Under the pieces are notes generated by a model that was not told the DNA's origin, did not search any database, and was given only the letters and a program-made list of their open reading frames with translations. From assembly GCA_000092065.1 (NCBI GenBank), contig CP000584.1: a DNA stretch of 64,000 bases, one strand, 5' to 3'. Below are positions 46,569-53,897 of this stretch, piece after piece. A program made the translations under genes and the position numbers. Numbering within the stretch: the stretch's first letter is position 1; the number at the start of each line of letters is the position of its first letter. This DNA comes from Ostreococcus lucimarinus. Lineage: Eukaryota.

Positions 46569-49142
46569 CTAGAGGACGAGCTTGACCCACGGCATGTCGC
46601 ACGCGTCGTTCTCGCAGTTCTCCACCAGCGCGAACGTGATGTCAGCCATGGGCACGGAGAGGGAAATTTGTTGTAAATTTCTGGCCGTCGAGGCGTCCGT
46701 CATGATGAGGTGCGTGGAACGTAAGCGAGAGGCGATGCGAACGCCGCTCCCAATCGGGGGCTCGGCGACGTTTACGCGCGGATCTTTGCACATCACCTTG
46801 AGCATTTGCATCACCGTGCCCATGTCCACGGTGGTCGTGCCGGTGCGTTGAAGCGCCTTAACCAACGCTATCAAGAACATGCGCTCGTAAAAGCTCGCAG
46901 CGTGAATGAGTTTCATGTGCGGACCGTCGAACATTTCGCTTTGCGCTTGGCGGACGTCGTCCATGGTTACTTTTTCGATGCGAGCCTTGGCGCGCGCTGC
47001 GGCGCCCTCTTCTGGTTGCGCGTTTTGCAAAGTGAGAGTAGTCACCTTTTCGACGTTAATTCTGGCTTCGGCGACTTCCGCCGCTCGCCGCGCGAGTTCG
47101 AGCGCTCGCCGCGCGTCGCCGTTCACCGAAGCAACTTTTCTGCAAATCAAGTCGAGGGTCGACGGCGCGTAGGCGTCGCTGCATCCCTCGACACTTTCCA
47201 GACGCGAGGTGACGATCTTCTTGAGCTGTTCCCAGGAATACGGAGCGAAAGCCGCGCGATTGCTTCCGAGTCGAGACGCGATGCGCGGGAGCATGCGTTC
47301 GGGTACGTCGAGCGTGTTGGCGATGCCGATGACGACGAGTCGACTCTTCTTGTGAGTCGGCCAATCGAAAATATTGTACAGCACGTCTTGCCTGTGCGTA
47401 ACGAGCAAATCAAGCTCGTCGACGATGAGAACTGTGACTCGTCCATCGCTTCCTTTGCCTTCCTTGAATCTCTTCTCCAAGACCATGCTCGCTTTGTCCG
47501 GGCTAAACTTTTGCCCCATCAACTCTTCGGCGATGGTGCTGTACGCGTGCTTGGGCGTTTGCAAACGGAGCGCGTTGAGCTCAACGTGGTTGAACTTTGG
47601 AATCACGCCGTTGCGCGCTTGCGAACGAAGGACCCGTATGATTTCGCGAACTGTCGCCGTCTTGCCCGTACCGGGGACGCCGGAAATGTACAGACATTTT
47701 CCCGTGCTGTGCGAACCCGCCATGATGGCTTCGTGCACGAAGTCGTAGACTTGCTTGCGTTCGTTTTCGCGACACGGCAGCGTCGCCGGCGTCGATGCCA
47801 GAGATAACACAGCGCGCACGCCGCCTAAAACAGTCGACGGGTGCTTCCTACCACGACTGAGAGCGCTGCCACCGAAACCAGCAATCTCCAAACGCGCCGC
47901 CGCGTCTTCCACACGCCGTCGAGCGGCGAGACGACCCGCGAGACGACTGTTGGCGCCCGACTTTTTGTCCTTCTTTTTCTTCGAGTCCCAGTCGTCGTCC
48001 TCTGCGTCGCGCCAGTCTAATTCATTCTCAAAGCGATCGTCGTCGCTGAATTCGTCCTCTTCGCCCCATTCGCCGCGACGCTTGAAGCGCTGAAACGCGG
48101 TGTCGTACGTGTATTCGCACACGTACGTGTCGTGCGATCCTTCCTCTTGATCTCGGAATTCTTGAGGCGTGCACACCTTGGCGACGCGAAATAAGCAATC
48201 GACGGGATTAACGTCGACGTTATGCGTCAAAAACACCTCGCGCCGATGCTGAATGGGTTGGCGTCCCATGTGCGTCTCCTCGGGCAGCGCGTACCATCGC
48301 GCCGCGAATTGGTACTCTCCGTTCTCTTCCCAAATGTGCTCTATACGCGCTAAATGGAACCTACCCGCCATGAACTCCGTGCACGCGGTGCGCGTCAACG
48401 TTTCGATTCGCGGCACCGCGCTCGCGGCCTCCCCGCCCCGCGCACACAACGGACAGTGCCAATCGCTCTCCGGCACGCGCGTCAGCGGCGGCTTGAGACA
48501 GCACATGTGCCACCCGCTCAGACACGTATCGCACTCGAGCATGATTCGATCCGCGTTCGGCGCTTCACCGCACACCATGCAAGGACAATCTTCGTCGTCA
48601 TCGAAATCGACCGTTTTCTCGTTCACCACGTACACGCTATCGCCCACGGCAAACTTTTCGCCTTCCAAATTCACGCACTTCCAATACTTGCGCTTCGGCG
48701 CCGCCGCCGCCGCGTTCAATTTTTTTCCCCTCCCCACCTTTTTCCCGTCCGACCCCCCCCCGACGTCGCTCGCGACGTCCCGCGCGTCGCGCGTCCTCGT
48801 CCTCTCCCCCTCGCTCGCTTTCGCCTTCGTCTTTTTCCCTCCTCTCCCCGACGCGTCCCTCGCCGCGTCGTCGTCTCGCGTCCGCGCCGCCTCCGTCTCC
48901 ATCTCCTTCCTCCCTCGCGCCATCTGCGCCAAAAACGCCGCGTTCGCCCGCTTCTTCTTCTTCTTCTTCTTCGCCTTCCCATCGTTCGCGTCCTCGTCGT
49001 CCCGTCCCGTCGTCGTCGTCGTCGTCGTCGTCTTTCGCTTCGTCGGTCGCGTCCCATCCTCGGTGGCGTACACCCGCGTCGCCATCGCGCGCGCGCGCGA
49101 CGTCGACGCGAGTCGCGATCGCAGTCGCGTCTGCCGCTCCAT
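46569..49142 (-). CDS. ORC1: Origin recognition complex subunit 1 (plant-type: BAH + PHD + AAA+)
   Basis: PHD finger CPCMVCGE…CDTC…WHMCC…HCPLC. BAH segment. Walker A GVPGTGKTAT and Walker B VLIVDELD. Winged-helix C-terminus. Confidence 0.85.
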   Translation of the reverse strand: MERQTRLRSRLASTSRARAMATRVYATEDGTRPTKRKTTTTTTTTGRDDEDANDGKAKKKKKKKRANAAFLAQMARGRKEMETEAARTRDDDAARDASGRGGKKTKAKASEGERTRTRDARDVASDVGGGSDGKKVGRGKKLNAAAAAPKRKYWKCVNLEGEKFAVGDSVYVVNEKTVDFDDDEDCPCMVCGEAPNADRIMLECDTCLSGWHMCCLKPPLTRVPESDWHCPLCARGGEAASAVPRIETLTRTACTEFMAGRFHLARIEHIWEENGEYQFAARWYALPEETHMGRQPIQHRREVFLTHNVDVNPVDCLFRVAKVCTPQEFRDQEEGSHDTYVCEYTYDTAFQRFKRRGEWGEEDEFSDDDRFENELDWRDAEDDDWDSKKKKDKKSGANSRLAGRLAARRRVEDAAARLEIAGFGGSALSRGRKHPSTVLGGVRAVLSLASTPATLPCRENERKQVYDFVHEAIMAGSHSTGKCLYISGVPGTGKTATVREIIRVLRSQARNGVIPKFNHVELNALRLQTPKHAYSTIAEELMGQKFSPDKASMVLEKRFKEGKGSDGRVTVLIVDELDLLVTHRQDVLYNIFDWPTHKKSRLVVIGIANTLDVPERMLPRIASRLGSNRAAFAPYSWEQLKKIVTSRLESVEGCSDAYAPSTLDLICRKVASVNGDARRALELARRAAEVAEARINVEKVTTLTLQNAQPEEGAAARAKARIEKVTMDDVRQAQSEMFDGPHMKLIHAASFYERMFLIALVKALQRTGTTTVDMGTVMQMLKVMCKDPRVNVAEPPIGSGVRIASRLRSTHLIMTDASTARNLQQISLSVPMADITFALVENCENDACDMPWVKLVL

Positions 49143-49288
49143 CTCGTCCGTCGTCCCTCGTCGCCGGCGTCGCGGTGTGAGCGCGCGTCGCGGTGTGCGC
49201 GCACCGCGATTCGAATCGATCGCGCGACAGCTCGAGTTTGAATTCGCGTTCGCGTCGTCGCGAGTGCGACGCGCGCGAGGGACGACGG

Positions 49289-50974
49289 ATGCGCGTCTCG
49301 ACGTCGACGCGCGTCTCGATCGCGGTCGCGTCGACGCCGCGTCGCGCGCGTCGGCGACGACGCGCGAACGCGACGCGACGACGCGCGTTCGACGACGACG
49401 ACGACGACGACGACGGACTCGATGGACTCGTGCGACGGGCGTGCGCGCGAATCGGACGCGGCGACGAGGAAGCGAAAGAGATGACGGCGCGATTGCGGGC
49501 GAATTGGTTCGAGACGGCGGAGGACGTGCGAGGGATGGGGCCGGAGGACGCGCGCGCGGCGGGAATGCCGGCGAGGCTGTACGCGAGCGTGCGGGCGACG
49601 CTGGACGAGGACGAAGAAGACGACGTAGAGGCGAGAAATGGGGAAACGAAGCGCGAGGAGAGCGAAAGTGGGTGGATCGGGGGGGCGCTGCCGGGCGCGG
49701 GAACGCGCGCGCCGACGGTGACGCGAGAGGGAGGGACGGCGCTCGCCGACGTGCGCGTGACGCAACGGCGACGATTGAAACCGTTTTCTCTGCGCGGCGA
49801 AGAGGTGAGCGCGGAGTTGGAGGAAGAGTTGAATACGCTGGTGAGAGATTTGACGTCGAGACGCGTCGGTGGTGGGCGCGCGCCCGTGCGAGAGCGCACG
49901 GCGATGAATCACGTCGCCGTGGCGAAGCAATTCATGGGATGGTTGTGCCGAGAGTCAGAGCACGCGAGCGAGTTTGCGACTCTGAGCGTCGATGGACGCG
50001 TGGTGTTGCGTCCGGGCGTGTCGTTGCGCGACGCGTTTCCGAAGCGCGAATCCGTAGGCGCGAAGTACGCGATAGAATACGTTCAGTGGCTCAGCGACGA
50101 GCGTCGCATCAAATCGACGACGGAGGATTTTCAGCTGCGAAGTCTCGTCGCCTTGGCGAAGTGGGTGCACGCGTTCGTCGAAGACGACGGTATAGCGCCG
50201 CCGTGCGTGCAAGAGCTCGTTCGAGTGCAGCGATCGGCGCGCGATCGCGCGAAAAACGCCCCACACGCCGCGGACGACGACCGAAAATGGCTCGAATGGG
50301 ATCAGTACTTGGCGCTCGTCGAGCATCTCAAACTCGAGTGCGCGCCGCTGGATTGCAACGGCAAAGAGCGCTCTGAGCGCGAAATCGCGATGAGCGTGCA
50401 GCGCTATTTATTGTTCGCCATCTTGGCGTGCATTCCCGATCGCCAGCGAACGTTGCGCGAGCTGCAGTTGAACAAGACGCTCTTTCGCGACGCCTCCACC
50501 GGCGCGTGGATGGTGCGTCACGGCAGCGACGATTACAAAACGGGCGGCGCCTACGGCGAGCGACCCGCGCTCGTGATCGATTCTCGCGTCTATCCAGCGC
50601 TCGAGAGTTGGCTCTCCACCCACCGAGCCGCGTTATCGCCGTCCCACGACTTTGTTTTCACCCGCCCCAACGGCACGCCCTGGACGGTGAGCGAATTGTC
50701 GCGAACGTTTTCCCGCGCCGCCCTTCGCGTCACCGGCCAAAAGACCAATCCCCACTTGATTCGCGACATGATCGTCACCCACGTCCGCTCTCGCGGCATC
50801 GCCAGCGACGCCGAGCTCGAGGCCTTGGCTCGTTTCATGGGTCACTCCAGCGCCATGCAAAAGTCCACCTACGACCGCCGCACGACGCAAGAAAAAGTCA
50901 ACCCGGCGTTGTCGTTGATGGCCAACGTCAACGCCGCCGCGCCGCCGTCGCGACCGGCGTCCGCGCCGTCCTAG
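49289..50974 (+). CDS. Tyrosine-recombinase (phage-integrase fold; Crypton-like) domain protein
   Basis: The C-terminal 300 aa carries the R…K…HxxR…H…Y catalytic tetrad pattern in the right order (…PDRQRTLRELQL…HGSDDYKTGG…NPHLIRDMIVTHVRS…LARFMGHSSAMQKSTYDRRT…). An N-terminal SAM-like core-binding region follows a poly-Asp (GAC)n tract. First ATG at 49289 (alternative 49481); the track start is a GTG. Confidence 0.55.
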   Translation: MRVSTSTRVSIAVASTPRRARRRRRANATRRRAFDDDDDDDDGLDGLVRRACARIGRGDEEAKEMTARLRANWFETAEDVRGMGPEDARAAGMPARLYASVRATLDEDEEDDVEARNGETKREESESGWIGGALPGAGTRAPTVTREGGTALADVRVTQRRRLKPFSLRGEEVSAELEEELNTLVRDLTSRRVGGGRAPVRERTAMNHVAVAKQFMGWLCRESEHASEFATLSVDGRVVLRPGVSLRDAFPKRESVGAKYAIEYVQWLSDERRIKSTTEDFQLRSLVALAKWVHAFVEDDGIAPPCVQELVRVQRSARDRAKNAPHAADDDRKWLEWDQYLALVEHLKLECAPLDCNGKERSEREIAMSVQRYLLFAILACIPDRQRTLRELQLNKTLFRDASTGAWMVRHGSDDYKTGGAYGERPALVIDSRVYPALESWLSTHRAALSPSHDFVFTRPNGTPWTVSELSRTFSRAALRVTGQKTNPHLIRDMIVTHVRSRGIASDAELEALARFMGHSSAMQKSTYDRRTTQEKVNPALSLMANVNAAAPPSRPASAPS

Positions 50975-51372
50975 CGATCGCGGAGTCGATCGATTTTCGG
51001 TCTCGACCGCGGCGTCCGGATCGGATCCCGTCGGCGCGCGCCCGCGATGAAACCAAACCAAACCAAACGCCACCGAACCAAACACAGACACGACGCGACC
51101 ACGCGCCGCCGCGCGGTGACCTCGCCGCAGTCGGGGACGCGAGTCGCGACTCGCCGATTCATCACCGCGCGTCGCCGCGGCGCGACGACGCGCGAGAGCG
51201 GAGAAAGGGCGCTCGAATCGTCGATCGCGAATCGCGTCGAACGCGCGACGCGACCGACGCGCGCGACGCGCGCGACGCCGCGCGACGCGACGGCGCGGGA
51301 CGCGCGATCGACGCCCGGACGCGAATCGACGGGAGGCGCGAGCGACGCGAGGAAACGTCGGCGACGCGCGCG

Positions 51373-52503
51373 ATGGCGCCGAACGACGGCGAACGAACGG
51401 CGTTCGCGCTGAAGATCGCGCGAGGGCGCGTCGTGGAGGTGACGAAGACGAACGGGGAGACGATCGAGGGGGTGTTCGCGGAGACGACGAAGAACGGCGG
51501 CGAGGCGACGATCAAGTACGGATGGACGAAACGCGAGGCGGGGGCGAAAGAGCGGGCGCAGAGGAGCAAACCGATGGAAACGATGGCGATCGCGATGGAT
51601 GAGATCGCGAGCATCACGGCGAGAGACGTGGGGATGAGCGATTTGGCGGTGGGGCCGAGTCGAATGAACGACGACTTCACCGACGGCGGCATCTCGAGAG
51701 GGGCGACGGGACAGGATCGCGAACTCGTCGCGTGGGCGCCGGAAGAGGGCGATGGAGCGAGTGGGATGACGCTCGAGGAAGAGGCTGGGATCGGGGCGAA
51801 GAAGGCGGCGGCGGCGGCGTGGGGGAAGAAATCCGGCGGACAGTGGGACCAATTCTCCGCCAATAAGCAACTCTTCGGCGTCGACACCAAGTTTGACGAA
51901 TCCTTGTACACGACGACGATCGATAAGGCCAAGGGAGGGATCTCCGAAGCCGAGGCCGCGCGCATCGCGTACGAGATTCAGAATCAAATCTCGGACAACC
52001 CGCACGTCGCGGAGGAACGTGGCCAAAAGGCGCTCGCGGATTACGACGAAGAGGAACGATACTCCTCGGTGTTGCCCACGCCGAAAGGCGCGGCGCCGCC
52101 GACGCCGGCGTGGGGCTCGGGCAAGGTGCCGAGCACCGTCGCGCAGCACGCGGAAAAGAAGCCCGCGGGTGAGAAGGCGAAGGACGTCGCCCAGCCCGCG
52201 GACGCGTCCAAGTCCAAGCTCAACGCCGACGCCAAGTCTTTCTCTCTCAGCGCCAAGGCGGCCGAGTTCGTGCCGACGTTCAAAAAGCCAGCCGCGCCGC
52301 AAGTGCCGCCCACGGGACCGCAAATGATGATGTACCCGGGTATCCCGCAAATGCAAGGCCAAATGATGTACATGCCGCAAATGGGCATGGGCGTTCCGCC
52401 GCAAATGCGAGGCATGATGCCGGGTATGCCGTACATGCCGCAACAAGGCATGGGCGTCCCGCACGGTGCGCCTCCCACACGACCACCCGAGGGTGAGAAC
52501 TGA
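51373..52503 (+). CDS. ATXN2: Ataxin-2/PBP1-like protein: Lsm, LsmAD and PAM2 motif
   Basis: The LsmAD block SGGQWDQFSANKQLFGVDTKFDESLYTTTIDK is highly conserved. PAM2 motif SKLNADAKSFSLSAKAAEFVP. Met/Gln/Pro-rich tail. Confidence 0.75.
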   Translation: MAPNDGERTAFALKIARGRVVEVTKTNGETIEGVFAETTKNGGEATIKYGWTKREAGAKERAQRSKPMETMAIAMDEIASITARDVGMSDLAVGPSRMNDDFTDGGISRGATGQDRELVAWAPEEGDGASGMTLEEEAGIGAKKAAAAAWGKKSGGQWDQFSANKQLFGVDTKFDESLYTTTIDKAKGGISEAEAARIAYEIQNQISDNPHVAEERGQKALADYDEEERYSSVLPTPKGAAPPTPAWGSGKVPSTVAQHAEKKPAGEKAKDVAQPADASKSKLNADAKSFSLSAKAAEFVPTFKKPAAPQVPPTGPQMMMYPGIPQMQGQMMYMPQMGMGVPPQMRGMMPGMPYMPQQGMGVPHGAPPTRPPEGEN

Positions 52504-52775
52504 GCTCGCGTTCGCGTACACAACGAGCGAGTGCGTTCCATAGGCGTCGCGCGCGCGCCATCCGAAACCGTCAAACCGTCGACGCGCTCGCTCGACGTTT
52601 GATTTTGTCCGTCTCCGACGACGCAATAACACATTACCGACAAAACATATTATCCAGGCGACTCCGACGGCGCGTCGCGTCTTCGCCTTTCGCGACCGTC
52701 GACGCGAGCGCGAAACGACGTCCCGACGGGACGACTGGCGACCCCGCGCGGCGGTTACCGCACATCGCGCCGACG

Positions 52776-53897
52776 ATGCGCGTCGCGCGCGCCTTCGTCG
52801 TCGCTTTCGCGCGCGCGCGCCCGCGAGTGACGCGCGCCGCGCGTCCGAGCGCGCCCGCGACGAAACCGCGCGTCTGCGCCCCCCTCTGCGCGTCCGCCGA
52901 CGACCGCGCGCTGCACAGCCTCGACGGCTGCGACGACGCCAGCGACGCGCCGTACGTCGTCGTCAAGCGCGTCGACGCCCACGACGTCGGCGCGCTCGGT
53001 GATGTGTTACTTTCTCTCGGTGCCTCGTCCGTGTCGACGATCGACGCCGACGCGGGGACGGAGGACGAGCACGAAATCTTCAGCGCCAACACGTTCGAGG
53101 AGCAGGCGAGCGACAAGACGAAGGCGCGCGTTTGGGCGAAGTGCCACGTGACGGCGTACTTTGAAGATCACGCGCGAGCGCGCGCGGGAATCGAGGCGGC
53201 GGAAGAAATTTTGGGGATTTCGTTGGAAGCGTCGTACGCGGAGTCGAAATCAAACGATTGGGTGCAGGCGGTGAAGGATAGCTTTACGCCGACGAAAATC
53301 GCGGACGGGCTGTACATCGTGCCGGATTGGTGTAAAGACGTCGATGCGAACGCTGTGAACATCGCGCTGGAGCCGGGCATCGCGTTCGGTACCGGTGAAC
53401 ATCCGACGACGCGGTTGTGCCTGCGCTGGCTGAAACAGACTTTGGCGAGGCGAGGGAAGACCGAGCTCGTGGTCGATTTCGGATGCGGCTCGGGCGTACT
53501 CGCGATCGGAGCGCTCGTCATGGGGGCCGACCGCGCGGTGGGCGTGGATTTGGCGAAACAAGCCGTGCAGAGTTCTATCGACAACGCCAAGTTGAATGGT
53601 GTGGAGGATCGCTTGACGACGTATCTTGGCGACGGACGCGATCCCGGAACTCCGGGCGCGAACGGGCAGGCGGACGTCGTCGTCGCGAATATTTTAATCG
53701 GCCCCGTGCTCGAGTTGGAGCCACTCTTCGCGGGGTACTGTAAAGTCGGTGGCGAAATCGCGTTGAGTGGGATTTTATACGGTGAGCAGAGCGCATCTGT
53801 CGTGGCAAAGTACGCGCGTCATTTCGACAATATTTGCGTCGTCGAGGAAGGTGGGTGGGCGTGCGTGCACGGCGTACGAAACGGAACGCCAGTCTGA
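52776..53897 (+). CDS. prmA: Ribosomal protein L11 methyltransferase (PrmA), organelle-targeted
   Basis: GLYIVPDW…IALEPGIAFGTGEHPTTRLCL…DFGCGSGVLAI…VGVDLA…NAKLNGV is collinear with bacterial PrmA. First ATG at 52776; the track start is a TTG. Confidence 0.8.
   Translation: MRVARAFVVAFARARPRVTRAARPSAPATKPRVCAPLCASADDRALHSLDGCDDASDAPYVVVKRVDAHDVGALGDVLLSLGASSVSTIDADAGTEDEHEIFSANTFEEQASDKTKARVWAKCHVTAYFEDHARARAGIEAAEEILGISLEASYAESKSNDWVQAVKDSFTPTKIADGLYIVPDWCKDVDANAVNIALEPGIAFGTGEHPTTRLCLRWLKQTLARRGKTELVVDFGCGSGVLAIGALVMGADRAVGVDLAKQAVQSSIDNAKLNGVEDRLTTYLGDGRDPGTPGANGQADVVVANILIGPVLELEPLFAGYCKVGGEIALSGILYGEQSASVVAKYARHFDNICVVEEGGWACVHGVRNGTPV

Follow-up and report, generated by a model that had tools for sequence, protein, structure and literature searches.

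What is a stand-alone tyrosine recombinase gene doing among the nuclear genes of a green picoalga? The question is raised by a 64,000-nucleotide stretch of the Ostreococcus lucimarinus genome (GenBank assembly GCA_000092065.1, contig CP000584.1), hereafter the window, in which a gene with the motifs of a tyrosine recombinase (YR) lies divergent from ORC1. A preliminary description, made from the letters of the DNA, took it for a Crypton DNA transposon or a domesticated Crypton gene. Here we find a recombinase of complete architecture whose nearest relatives outside the eukaryotes are cyanobacterial, and the explanation that we favour, with somewhat better than even confidence, is that of a nuclear-encoded, catalytically competent site-specific recombinase that is targeted to an organelle and has its descent or affinity with cyanobacterial integrases, not with Cryptons. 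Its localisation, activity, substrate and role in this explanation are predictions from sequence.

The coding sequence opens at the first ATG (49289) of an open reading frame (ORF) covering 49193..50974 on the plus strand, and gives a protein of 561 residues plus a stop codon. The motifs on which the recombinase had been recognised are all present and in the order given, in the C-terminal third of the protein (DRQRTLRELQL, residues 384–394; HGSDDYKTGG, 411–420; HLIRDMIVTH, 489–498; LARFMGHSS..STYDRR, 513–531). Pfam PF00589, the profile proposed as a check, aligned to residues 432–532 with an E-value of 6.6e-6, but its score of 26.4 bits fell 0.7 bits short of the gathering cut-off (27.1). A precomputed PF00589.28 match is present on a protein 99% identical to the window YR (P0001), 14 of 31 family members match PF00589 at E<0.01, and a cyanobacterial relative (locus L011) scores 50.2 bits. 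Scores against narrower profiles were low, at 25.4 bits for NCBIfam TIGR02224 XerC (cut-off 335) and 19.5 bits for NF040815 XerA (cut-off 220), and the PHROG_1 integrase profile matched the same C-terminal segment weakly (33 bits). Since the profile matches lie near or below their cut-offs and sequence alone is borderline, fold and residues were tested directly.

An AlphaFold2 model of the window YR, built on 31 homologues, has a mean pLDDT of 80.9, with most of residues 160–480 above 90. When the model was compared with the PDB using Foldseek, the top matches were all tyrosine recombinases, the best being Cre of phage P1 (1pvr_B, E=7e-7, about 390 aligned columns over both domains), and others including XerA, XerH, lambda Int, an integrase from methicillin-resistant Staphylococcus aureus and IntI. 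The alignments to Cre, XerA, XerH and lambda Int extend over 370–440 columns (E=7e-7 to 1e-3) and therefore cover both the core-binding and the catalytic domain, in agreement with the SAM-like core-binding region that had been noticed upstream of the catalytic part. Cre differs from the window YR in its sequence (15% identity) and in having Trp at box II, and an hhalign comparison of the family with Cre was weak (E=0.016), the register of Arg I and of the Lys not being fixed by the alignment.

Neither the single YR protein nor the full-length family profile found anything useful among PDB sequences, and only the catalytic-domain profile reached a characterised enzyme, Escherichia coli XerD (1a0p). 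In this alignment H489, R492, H519 and Y528 fall on H244, R247, H270 and Y279 of XerD, in matching contexts (NPH489LIR492 on PH244VLR247, MGH519S on LGH270S, STY528 on QIY279). Across the 31 homologues, which are diverse and include very distant hosts, R385, R387, R390, K417, H489 and R492 are invariant, while H519 and Y528 are conserved in at least 90%; Arg I is either R387 or R390. The alignment of catalytic residues suggested in the preliminary description thus upholds its assignment. The window YR is a two-domain tyrosine recombinase with the full ordered catalytic set R-K-H-R-H-Y, and its fold and intact active site predict that it is probably catalytically competent.

Within the core-binding domain, T189, T204, G217, W218 and R272 show little or no variation in the same 31 homologues. 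Ahead of it, the model shows a small helical domain resembling SAM or helix-hairpin-helix (HhH) folds, with helices at residues 44–54, 59–71, 77–81, 85–90 and 95–116. Its Foldseek matches to SAM domains are weak (5zrz_A, probability 0.85, TM 0.71; 1dxs, probability 0.75), and it carries a conserved motif, GR..DA...LR.NWF; the domain as such is found in the eukaryotic family only and is absent from the cyanobacterial relatives. The added domain suggests new protein–protein interactions, and with it comes the thought that the YR fold has been kept for something other than recombination, either as a relaxing or nicking enzyme like the type IB topoisomerases, with which YRs have a common catalytic chemistry, or as a DNA-binding or architectural protein like Ndc10 and the products of DUF3504 genes. 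That no recombination site or partner was found agrees with this proposal. We nevertheless hold it to be improbable, as every catalytic residue, the Tyr nucleophile included, is invariant or nearly so across lineages, cyanobacteria among them, and the whole core-binding and catalytic architecture of true recombinases is retained, whereas the tetrad of catalytic residues is lost in architectural derivatives such as the domesticated DUF3504 genes (PMC3212892).

To which lineage of recombinases does the protein belong? A HMMER search of 1.84e9 representative proteins returned 426 clusters at E<=1e-30 and only 2468 at E<=1e-3, which delimits a discrete family and not the general integrase background. 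Its named members come from green algae (Monoraphidium minutum, Micractinium sp.), diatoms (Seminavis robusta, Thalassiosira oceanica, Nitzschia inconspicua), a pelagophyte (Pelagococcus subviridis) and amoebozoans (Acanthamoeba castellanii, Dermamoeba algensis). This census rests on few named sequences and does not extend to red algae, glaucophytes, streptophytes with the land plants, or oomycetes; a repeat search of the named database with alignments gave nearly the same set, with one further named taxon (Nitzschia). Transcript evidence for family members comes from MMETSP, EukProt and a Seminavis entry marked 'expressed', and some members already bear the automatic labels 'Tyr recombinase domain-containing protein' or 'integrase'. 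An unrooted, distance-based tree (neighbour joining, 442 columns, 100 bootstraps) gathers all 45 eukaryote-type sequences into one clade with 100% bootstrap; the Mamiellophyceae, with the window YR inside, and the stramenopiles form subclades of 100% bootstrap each, and the two amoebozoans are not resolved. Some eukaryotic members have long extra N-terminal regions (P0186, a EukProt transcript of 1145 aa with PDRQRT at residue 919; P0137, P0164 and P0171, about 800 aa) and could be fusions with other domains.

A presequence-free subgroup of the representatives, with a different N-terminal module (..TALIRYTLPGWG..), consists of cyanobacterial 'site-specific integrases', among which a cluster look-up named Hassallia, Coleofasciculaceae, Oscillatoriophycideae and Nostoc parmelioides. 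When 185,579 bacterial and archaeal species genomes were scanned, 14 of 14 confirmed loci were cyanobacterial (Nostoc, Microcoleus, Kamptonema, Tolypothrix plasmid3, Pseudanabaenaceae, Leptolyngbya, Halomicronema). The signatures PPDRQRTxRELExGRTL, DYKTG, PHLxR, HS and YDxRT are common to these relatives and the eukaryotic family, and the window YR has all of the family signatures (PDRQRT(L)RELE, DYKTG, NPHL(I/V)RD, (Y)MGHS, YDRRT). The catalytic-domain hidden Markov model (HMM) of the eukaryotic family scores cyanobacterial integrases at 106–217 bits and XerD at 20.5 bits, and the full-length family profile reaches the cyanobacterial relatives down to E=5e-118. The nearest non-eukaryotic relatives are therefore exclusively cyanobacterial. 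These uncharacterised proteins (for example Hassallia MBW4607426.1, Nostoc parmelioides WP_190571891.1 and Coleofasciculaceae HEY9630529.1) have the same core-binding and catalytic architecture and the same signatures as the eukaryotic proteins, but lack the presequence and the SAM-like domain; their distribution is patchy and their contexts vary, whereas the eukaryotic genes are fixed. We infer that the eukaryotic family descends from accessory or mobile-element integrases of a cyanobacterial lineage, or recently shared an ancestor with that lineage, the direction being suggested by the cyanobacterial sequences, which are the more diverse.

The surroundings of the cyanobacterial genes include DDE transposases, NB-ARC and CHAT-TPR proteins and a D5_N/DUF3854/DUF5906 primase, which suggests that these genes sit in integrative or defence islands. 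No adjacent tRNA was found at the cyanobacterial loci, where neighbours are conserved only between close congeners. At two of the loci a primase-helicase, CHAT-TPR, NB-ARC STAND and DDE transposase genes are located near the relative (L016, 9461–12559(-) and 358–3075(+); L011, 472–4446(-) and 10861–11622(-)), and another relative is carried by plasmid3 of Tolypothrix tenuis PCC 7101 (L019).

The Crypton reading was examined with the same HMM. The set that we scored comprised 19 Crypton YRs of groups F, I, A and S, including diatom CryS1_PTri, from Additional file 4 of Kojima & Jurka (PMC3212892), together with DIRS/PAT recombinases and reference YRs. All 19 scored 0.7 bits or less or gave no match, against the 106–217 bits of the cyanobacterial integrases; the Crypton sequences were taken from optically recognised text, in which small errors are possible, enough to lower a score by a few bits but not by a hundred. 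No Pfam match to DUF3504 was found in the window YR at E<=10 or in any of 31 members, and none to DUF3435 (Starship 'Captain' or CryptonF-type YRs) in the same proteins. Box II holds the bacterial-type His in the family and Trp (GRW, GGW, GAW) in the tested Crypton sequences. Of the four Crypton groups, CryptonS is reported to have terminal direct repeats of 5–6 bp, often TATGG (PMC3212892); around the window YR there are neither terminal repeats nor target-site duplications, only CG-rich low-complexity repeats, and BLASTN of the flanks matched similar tracts throughout the window without any element boundary. Cryptons are also multi-copy, whereas tblastn found no second YR copy within the 64-kb window, so that neither the boundaries nor the extra copies looked for on the strength of the preliminary description came to light. 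What the Crypton reading has in its favour is that the gene is, like Cryptons and their DUF3504 derivatives (ZMYM2-4, QRICH1, KCTD1, KIAA1958), a eukaryotic nuclear stand-alone YR gene without reverse transcriptase (RT) or RNase H, that such derivatives show that YR genes of this kind can become fixed host genes, and that Cryptons are known in stramenopiles, including a diatom (PMC3212892). Against this stand the missing specific sequence affinity and the deep synteny described below, and we consider a Crypton ancestry, ancient or domesticated, very unlikely and largely refuted.

The same data bear on retroelements. As the preliminary description had said, no RT, RNase H or rve integrase lies near the window YR, whose neighbours are ORC1 and an ataxin-2-like gene, and the family HMM gives the YRs of DIRS1, DIRS-1_CR and SpPat1 no more than 1.2 bits; a DIRS, Ngaro or PAT retroelement was rejected on both counts.

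By identity to the window YR, the homologues fall into six tiers, one at 99% and the others at about 75, 68, 51, 47 and 44%. Contigs of the 74% and 68% tiers (L001, L002) both carry peptidase S41, Exo_endo_phos, ORC1(-), YR(+), SM-ATX/LsmAD(+), PrmA(+) and TPR(-), so that the synteny asked about in the preliminary description, an orthologue flanked by ORC1 and the ataxin-2-like gene in related algae, is borne out; in the window, too, a PrmA gene is found 3' of the ataxin-2-like gene. In the 44% tier (L006), from an AT-richer genome, the order is ORC1(-), YR(+), one gene without Pfam match in the ataxin-2 position, PrmA(+) and TPR(-). ORC1 and the YR gene stand head to head at 139, 189 and 287 bp in the orthologous loci, and at 146 bp between start codons in the window, close to the 150 bp first estimated. 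In one lineage of 47% identity (L003 2362–9615, also L004 and L005) the YR gene is not beside ORC1 but directly downstream of a gene for 2417 aa that combines a C5 DNA methylase (PF00145) and an SNF2 helicase domain. Farther afield, the Acanthamoeba castellanii homologue (ACA1_144080) lies among housekeeping genes and occupies 3086 bp for 659 aa, and so has introns; a Seminavis copy and a stramenopile-type copy with an 'ASAFAP' motif are likewise found among ordinary nuclear genes.

Selection and composition give the same picture. Nei-Gojobori dN/dS against the two nearest orthologues is 0.20–0.24 overall, 0.10–0.15 in the core-binding and catalytic domains and 0.45–0.5 over residues 1–160, showing that the YR is under purifying selection. 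GC at third codon positions is 0.78, and the CAI-like index of 0.674 lies within the range of five long ORFs elsewhere in the window (0.671+/-0.035), bearing out the host-like GC content and codon bias already noted. The YR gene belongs to the resident nuclear genes of its host and is inherited vertically; it is fixed at one position across related green picoalgae, and the earlier view of an old gene rather than a fresh insertion stands, given synteny down to a 44%-identical relative and the low dN/dS of the folded domains. An integrase of a still-mobile or recently integrated element, be it a provirus, a polinton-like virus or an integrative island, would be brought to mind by the transposases, D5-type primase and plasmid of the cyanobacterial relatives and by algal giant-virus YRs among the structural matches. 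With conserved host genes directly flanking the window YR (spacers of 146 bp on the ORC1 side and about 400 bp on the other), a composition like theirs, viral structural matches of just 13–16% identity and no family member on any of 2.9 million viral contigs, we find it scarcely credible. A viral origin or vector was rejected as well, the integrases of algal giant viruses and phages being no closer than Cre or XerA. One further match, P0089 (389 aa, PF00884 sulfatase), covers 15% of the query at 92% identity and probably reflects a chimera, formed during assembly or gene calling, in a metagenome contig of the same species.

Where might such a protein act? We surveyed the N-termini of full-length representatives starting with Met, using composition and motif heuristics. 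First, among Mamiellophyceae 46 of 58 have at least four basic and at most one acidic residue in positions 2–31, and signal peptides are absent. The count of charged residues over the first 35 aa of P0001 is +12/-1, and residues 1–40 of the window YR are rich in Arg, Ser, Thr and Ala, with acidic residues absent to about residue 34. It is composition that is kept in this group, the sequence itself not being conserved. Second, 37 of 58 stramenopile-type proteins start with a hydrophobic signal peptide, which is followed by [AGSC]F in 25 of the 37, compared with 13% in control windows of the same proteins (binomial P=3e-14); a looser criterion, [AGSC][FWYL], was dropped because of its background of 58%. 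One of these proteins (P0079) reads ...LFGASAFAPVSS at its N-terminus, with an exact 'ASAFAP' motif, the textbook import motif of complex red-type plastids (PMC4329603). Third, Dermamoeba has a mitochondrial-type presequence. Lastly, none of 24 cyanobacterial proteins shows a transit-peptide-like composition or a signal-peptide feature. The pattern is what would be expected of a nuclear-encoded protein imported into organelles by signals appropriate to each lineage, and in ochrophytes, at the least, it speaks against a role in the nucleus.

We postulate that the eukaryotic proteins gained at their N-termini an import signal suited to the lineage and the small SAM/HhH-like domain, and that their destination would be the plastid in ochrophytes and, in green algae and amoebae, the plastid and/or mitochondrion. 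Inside the organelle the YR would act on organellar DNA by standard YR chemistry, Tyr528 attacking the scissile phosphate with the help of R387 or R390, K417, H489, R492 and H519 to give a 3'-phosphotyrosyl intermediate, and strand exchange proceeding via a Holliday junction within a recombinase tetramer. The SAM-like domain could serve oligomerisation or partner binding. The outcome may be a Xer-like site-specific resolution of genome multimers or another programmed rearrangement.

Several observations weigh against this proposal. No recombination site was identified in any organelle genome, that of the source organism lying outside the data. Since plastids are absent from amoebozoans, the family as a whole cannot have a role confined to the plastid. 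An unrooted neighbour-joining tree, and cyanobacterial relatives that are patchy (14 species) and of variable, mobile-looking context, do not prove in which direction the gene was transferred. Neither type of signal is seen in 17 of 58 stramenopile-type and 12 of 58 Mamiellophyceae models, some of which may be truncated gene calls, and a presequence is missing from the Acanthamoeba model, whose first 35 aa have a charge count of +7/-7. The heuristics cannot tell chloroplast from mitochondrial transit peptides, and a nuclear or nucleolar signal is another possible reading of the Arg-rich stretch PRRARRRRRANATRRR of the window YR. The last of these points opens the way to a domesticated recombinase of the nucleus, its basic N-terminus being a nuclear localisation signal (NLS), which would carry out its site-specific reaction in the nuclear genome (rDNA, a programmed inversion and the resolution of replication intermediates being conceivable cases) and may be co-expressed with ORC1, the head-to-head arrangement being kept in three further lineages; the Acanthamoeba orthologue would fit here too. 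We think this possible but unlikely. A stramenopile-type signal peptide with plastid-type [AGSC]F is incompatible with nuclear import, and an N-terminus that keeps its composition and not its sequence, as in Mamiellophyceae, is typical of transit peptides, not of an NLS. Moreover, the ORC1–YR intergenic region contains no conserved regulatory motif or E2F-type site beyond chance CG-rich 7–9-mers, and the link to ORC1 is absent in the lineage with the methylase–helicase neighbour.

Two known systems lie closest to an organellar recombinase as postulated here. XerC/XerD and XerA/XerH have the same two-domain fold and the His-type box II set R-K-H-R-H-Y, XerD being the best-scoring characterised relative in sequence. 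Multimer resolution of circular genomes is the role of XerCD in bacteria, and by analogy would be that of the YR. The window YR differs from XerC/XerD in a similarity of about 20–25 bits against an equivalog cut-off of 335, in being about 250 aa longer with an extra N-terminal domain, and in its nuclear encoding; XerC/XerD have a dif site and an FtsK-type partner, and none is known for the YR family. The plastid-encoded TyrC of Heterosigma akashiwo and Kryptoperidinium foliaceum is likewise a YR associated with algal plastids, if the predicted plastid location of our family is right, and has intact catalytic residues; its speculated role is the conversion of multimeric plastid genomes to monomers (PMC2873285). 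TyrC, which we compare by description only, is sporadic and probably horizontally acquired, whereas the window family is encoded in the nucleus and equipped with import signals.

Table 1. Coordinates of the recombinase gene, its domains and catalytic residues, and the neighbouring features in the window.
Feature	Position (nt)	Strand	Remarks
Complete intron-less CDS of tyrosine recombinase (YR)	49289..50974	+	561 aa + stop; P0001 99% identical over 100% of length; dN/dS vs orthologues 0.20–0.24
aa 1–40, disordered N-terminal extension, presequence-like, putative organelle transit peptide	49289..49408	+	pLDDT <50; localisation predicted
Poly-Asp tract D35–D42, (GAC)n, between presequence-like region and first folded domain	49391..49414	+	
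aa 44–116, small helical N-terminal domain, SAM/HhH-like	49418..49636	+	pLDDT 88–97
aa ~160–355, core-binding (integrase 'SAM-like') domain	49766..50353	+	structural alignments to Cre, XerH and XerA span the region; dN/dS 0.14–0.15
aa 356–548, catalytic domain	50354..50932	+	dN/dS 0.10–0.14
Catalytic Arg I, R387 or R390	50447-50458	+	
Catalytic beta-hairpin Lys, K417	50537-50539	+	
Catalytic H489	50753-50755	+	
Catalytic R492	50762-50764	+	
Catalytic H519	50843-50845	+	
Catalytic nucleophile Y528	50870-50872	+	
Divergent intergenic region common to ORC1 and YR, presumed bidirectional promoter	49143..49288	.	146 bp between start codons
ORC1 (BAH-PHD-AAA+-Cdc6_C)	46569..49142	-	upstream synteny anchor, not part of recombinase
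Ataxin-2-like gene (SM-ATX + LsmAD)	51373..52503	+	downstream synteny anchor

Some further features of the region may be recorded. A perfect 26-nt inverted repeat, (CGT)n against (GAC)n with its arms 358 nt apart (49007–49032, inside ORC1, and 49391–49416), brackets the divergent ORC1/YR promoter and codes for poly-Thr in ORC1 on the minus strand and poly-Asp in the YR on the plus strand. The longest near-exact repeat of the region, a 34-nt direct repeat of 91% identity (49098–49131 and 49299–49332), falls in the N-terminal coding parts of ORC1, on the opposite strand, and of the YR presequence, and is probably CG-rich low complexity. Alternative-frame ORFs of 400–700 aa overlap the real genes (48253–50376(+), 48637–49899(-), 50428–52503(+) and others); these long overlapping ORFs are Arg/Ala/Gly-rich artefacts of a GC content of 63.5%, not genes. 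The PrmA gene of the window (52599–53897(+)) has a basic, Ala/Arg-rich start (MRVARAFVVAFARARPRVTRAARPS...) that resembles an organelle transit peptide.

We found no description of a nuclear-encoded conserved YR family in algae or amoebae in the searchable full-text literature, which is incomplete, so an earlier description is possible; the main text of an ochrophyte plastid-proteome paper mentions neither recombinase nor integrase. What is known is the enzyme class, a classical one, and what is new is a catalytically intact and fixed eukaryotic host family with probable cyanobacterial ancestry and predicted organelle-type targeting. To our knowledge, catalytically intact tyrosine recombinases are rare in eukaryotes as fixed cellular genes, and the domesticated examples that we know of, DUF3504 genes and Ndc10, have lost catalysis.

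The family described here keeps its catalytic residues across green algae, ochrophytes and amoebozoans and bears what look like organelle-type import signals, which together make it a concrete candidate for monomerising or site-specifically rearranging circular, highly recombinogenic organelle genomes. We tentatively suggest, as a less probable extension of organelle targeting, that algae and some amoebae may maintain their organelle genomes with a dedicated nuclear-encoded tyrosine recombinase captured from a cyanobacterial integrase, an organellar counterpart of Xer. Acting at a specific site, it would break down multimers of plastid and/or mitochondrial chromosomes or determine which isomer these chromosomes adopt. 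The hypothesis is directly testable in Ostreococcus, Micromonas or Phaeodactylum, and if the enzyme is active, it could become together with its site an orthogonal recombination tool for plastid engineering. If true, the family would clearly exemplify how an enzyme of prokaryotic mobile elements is recruited to the maintenance of organelles.

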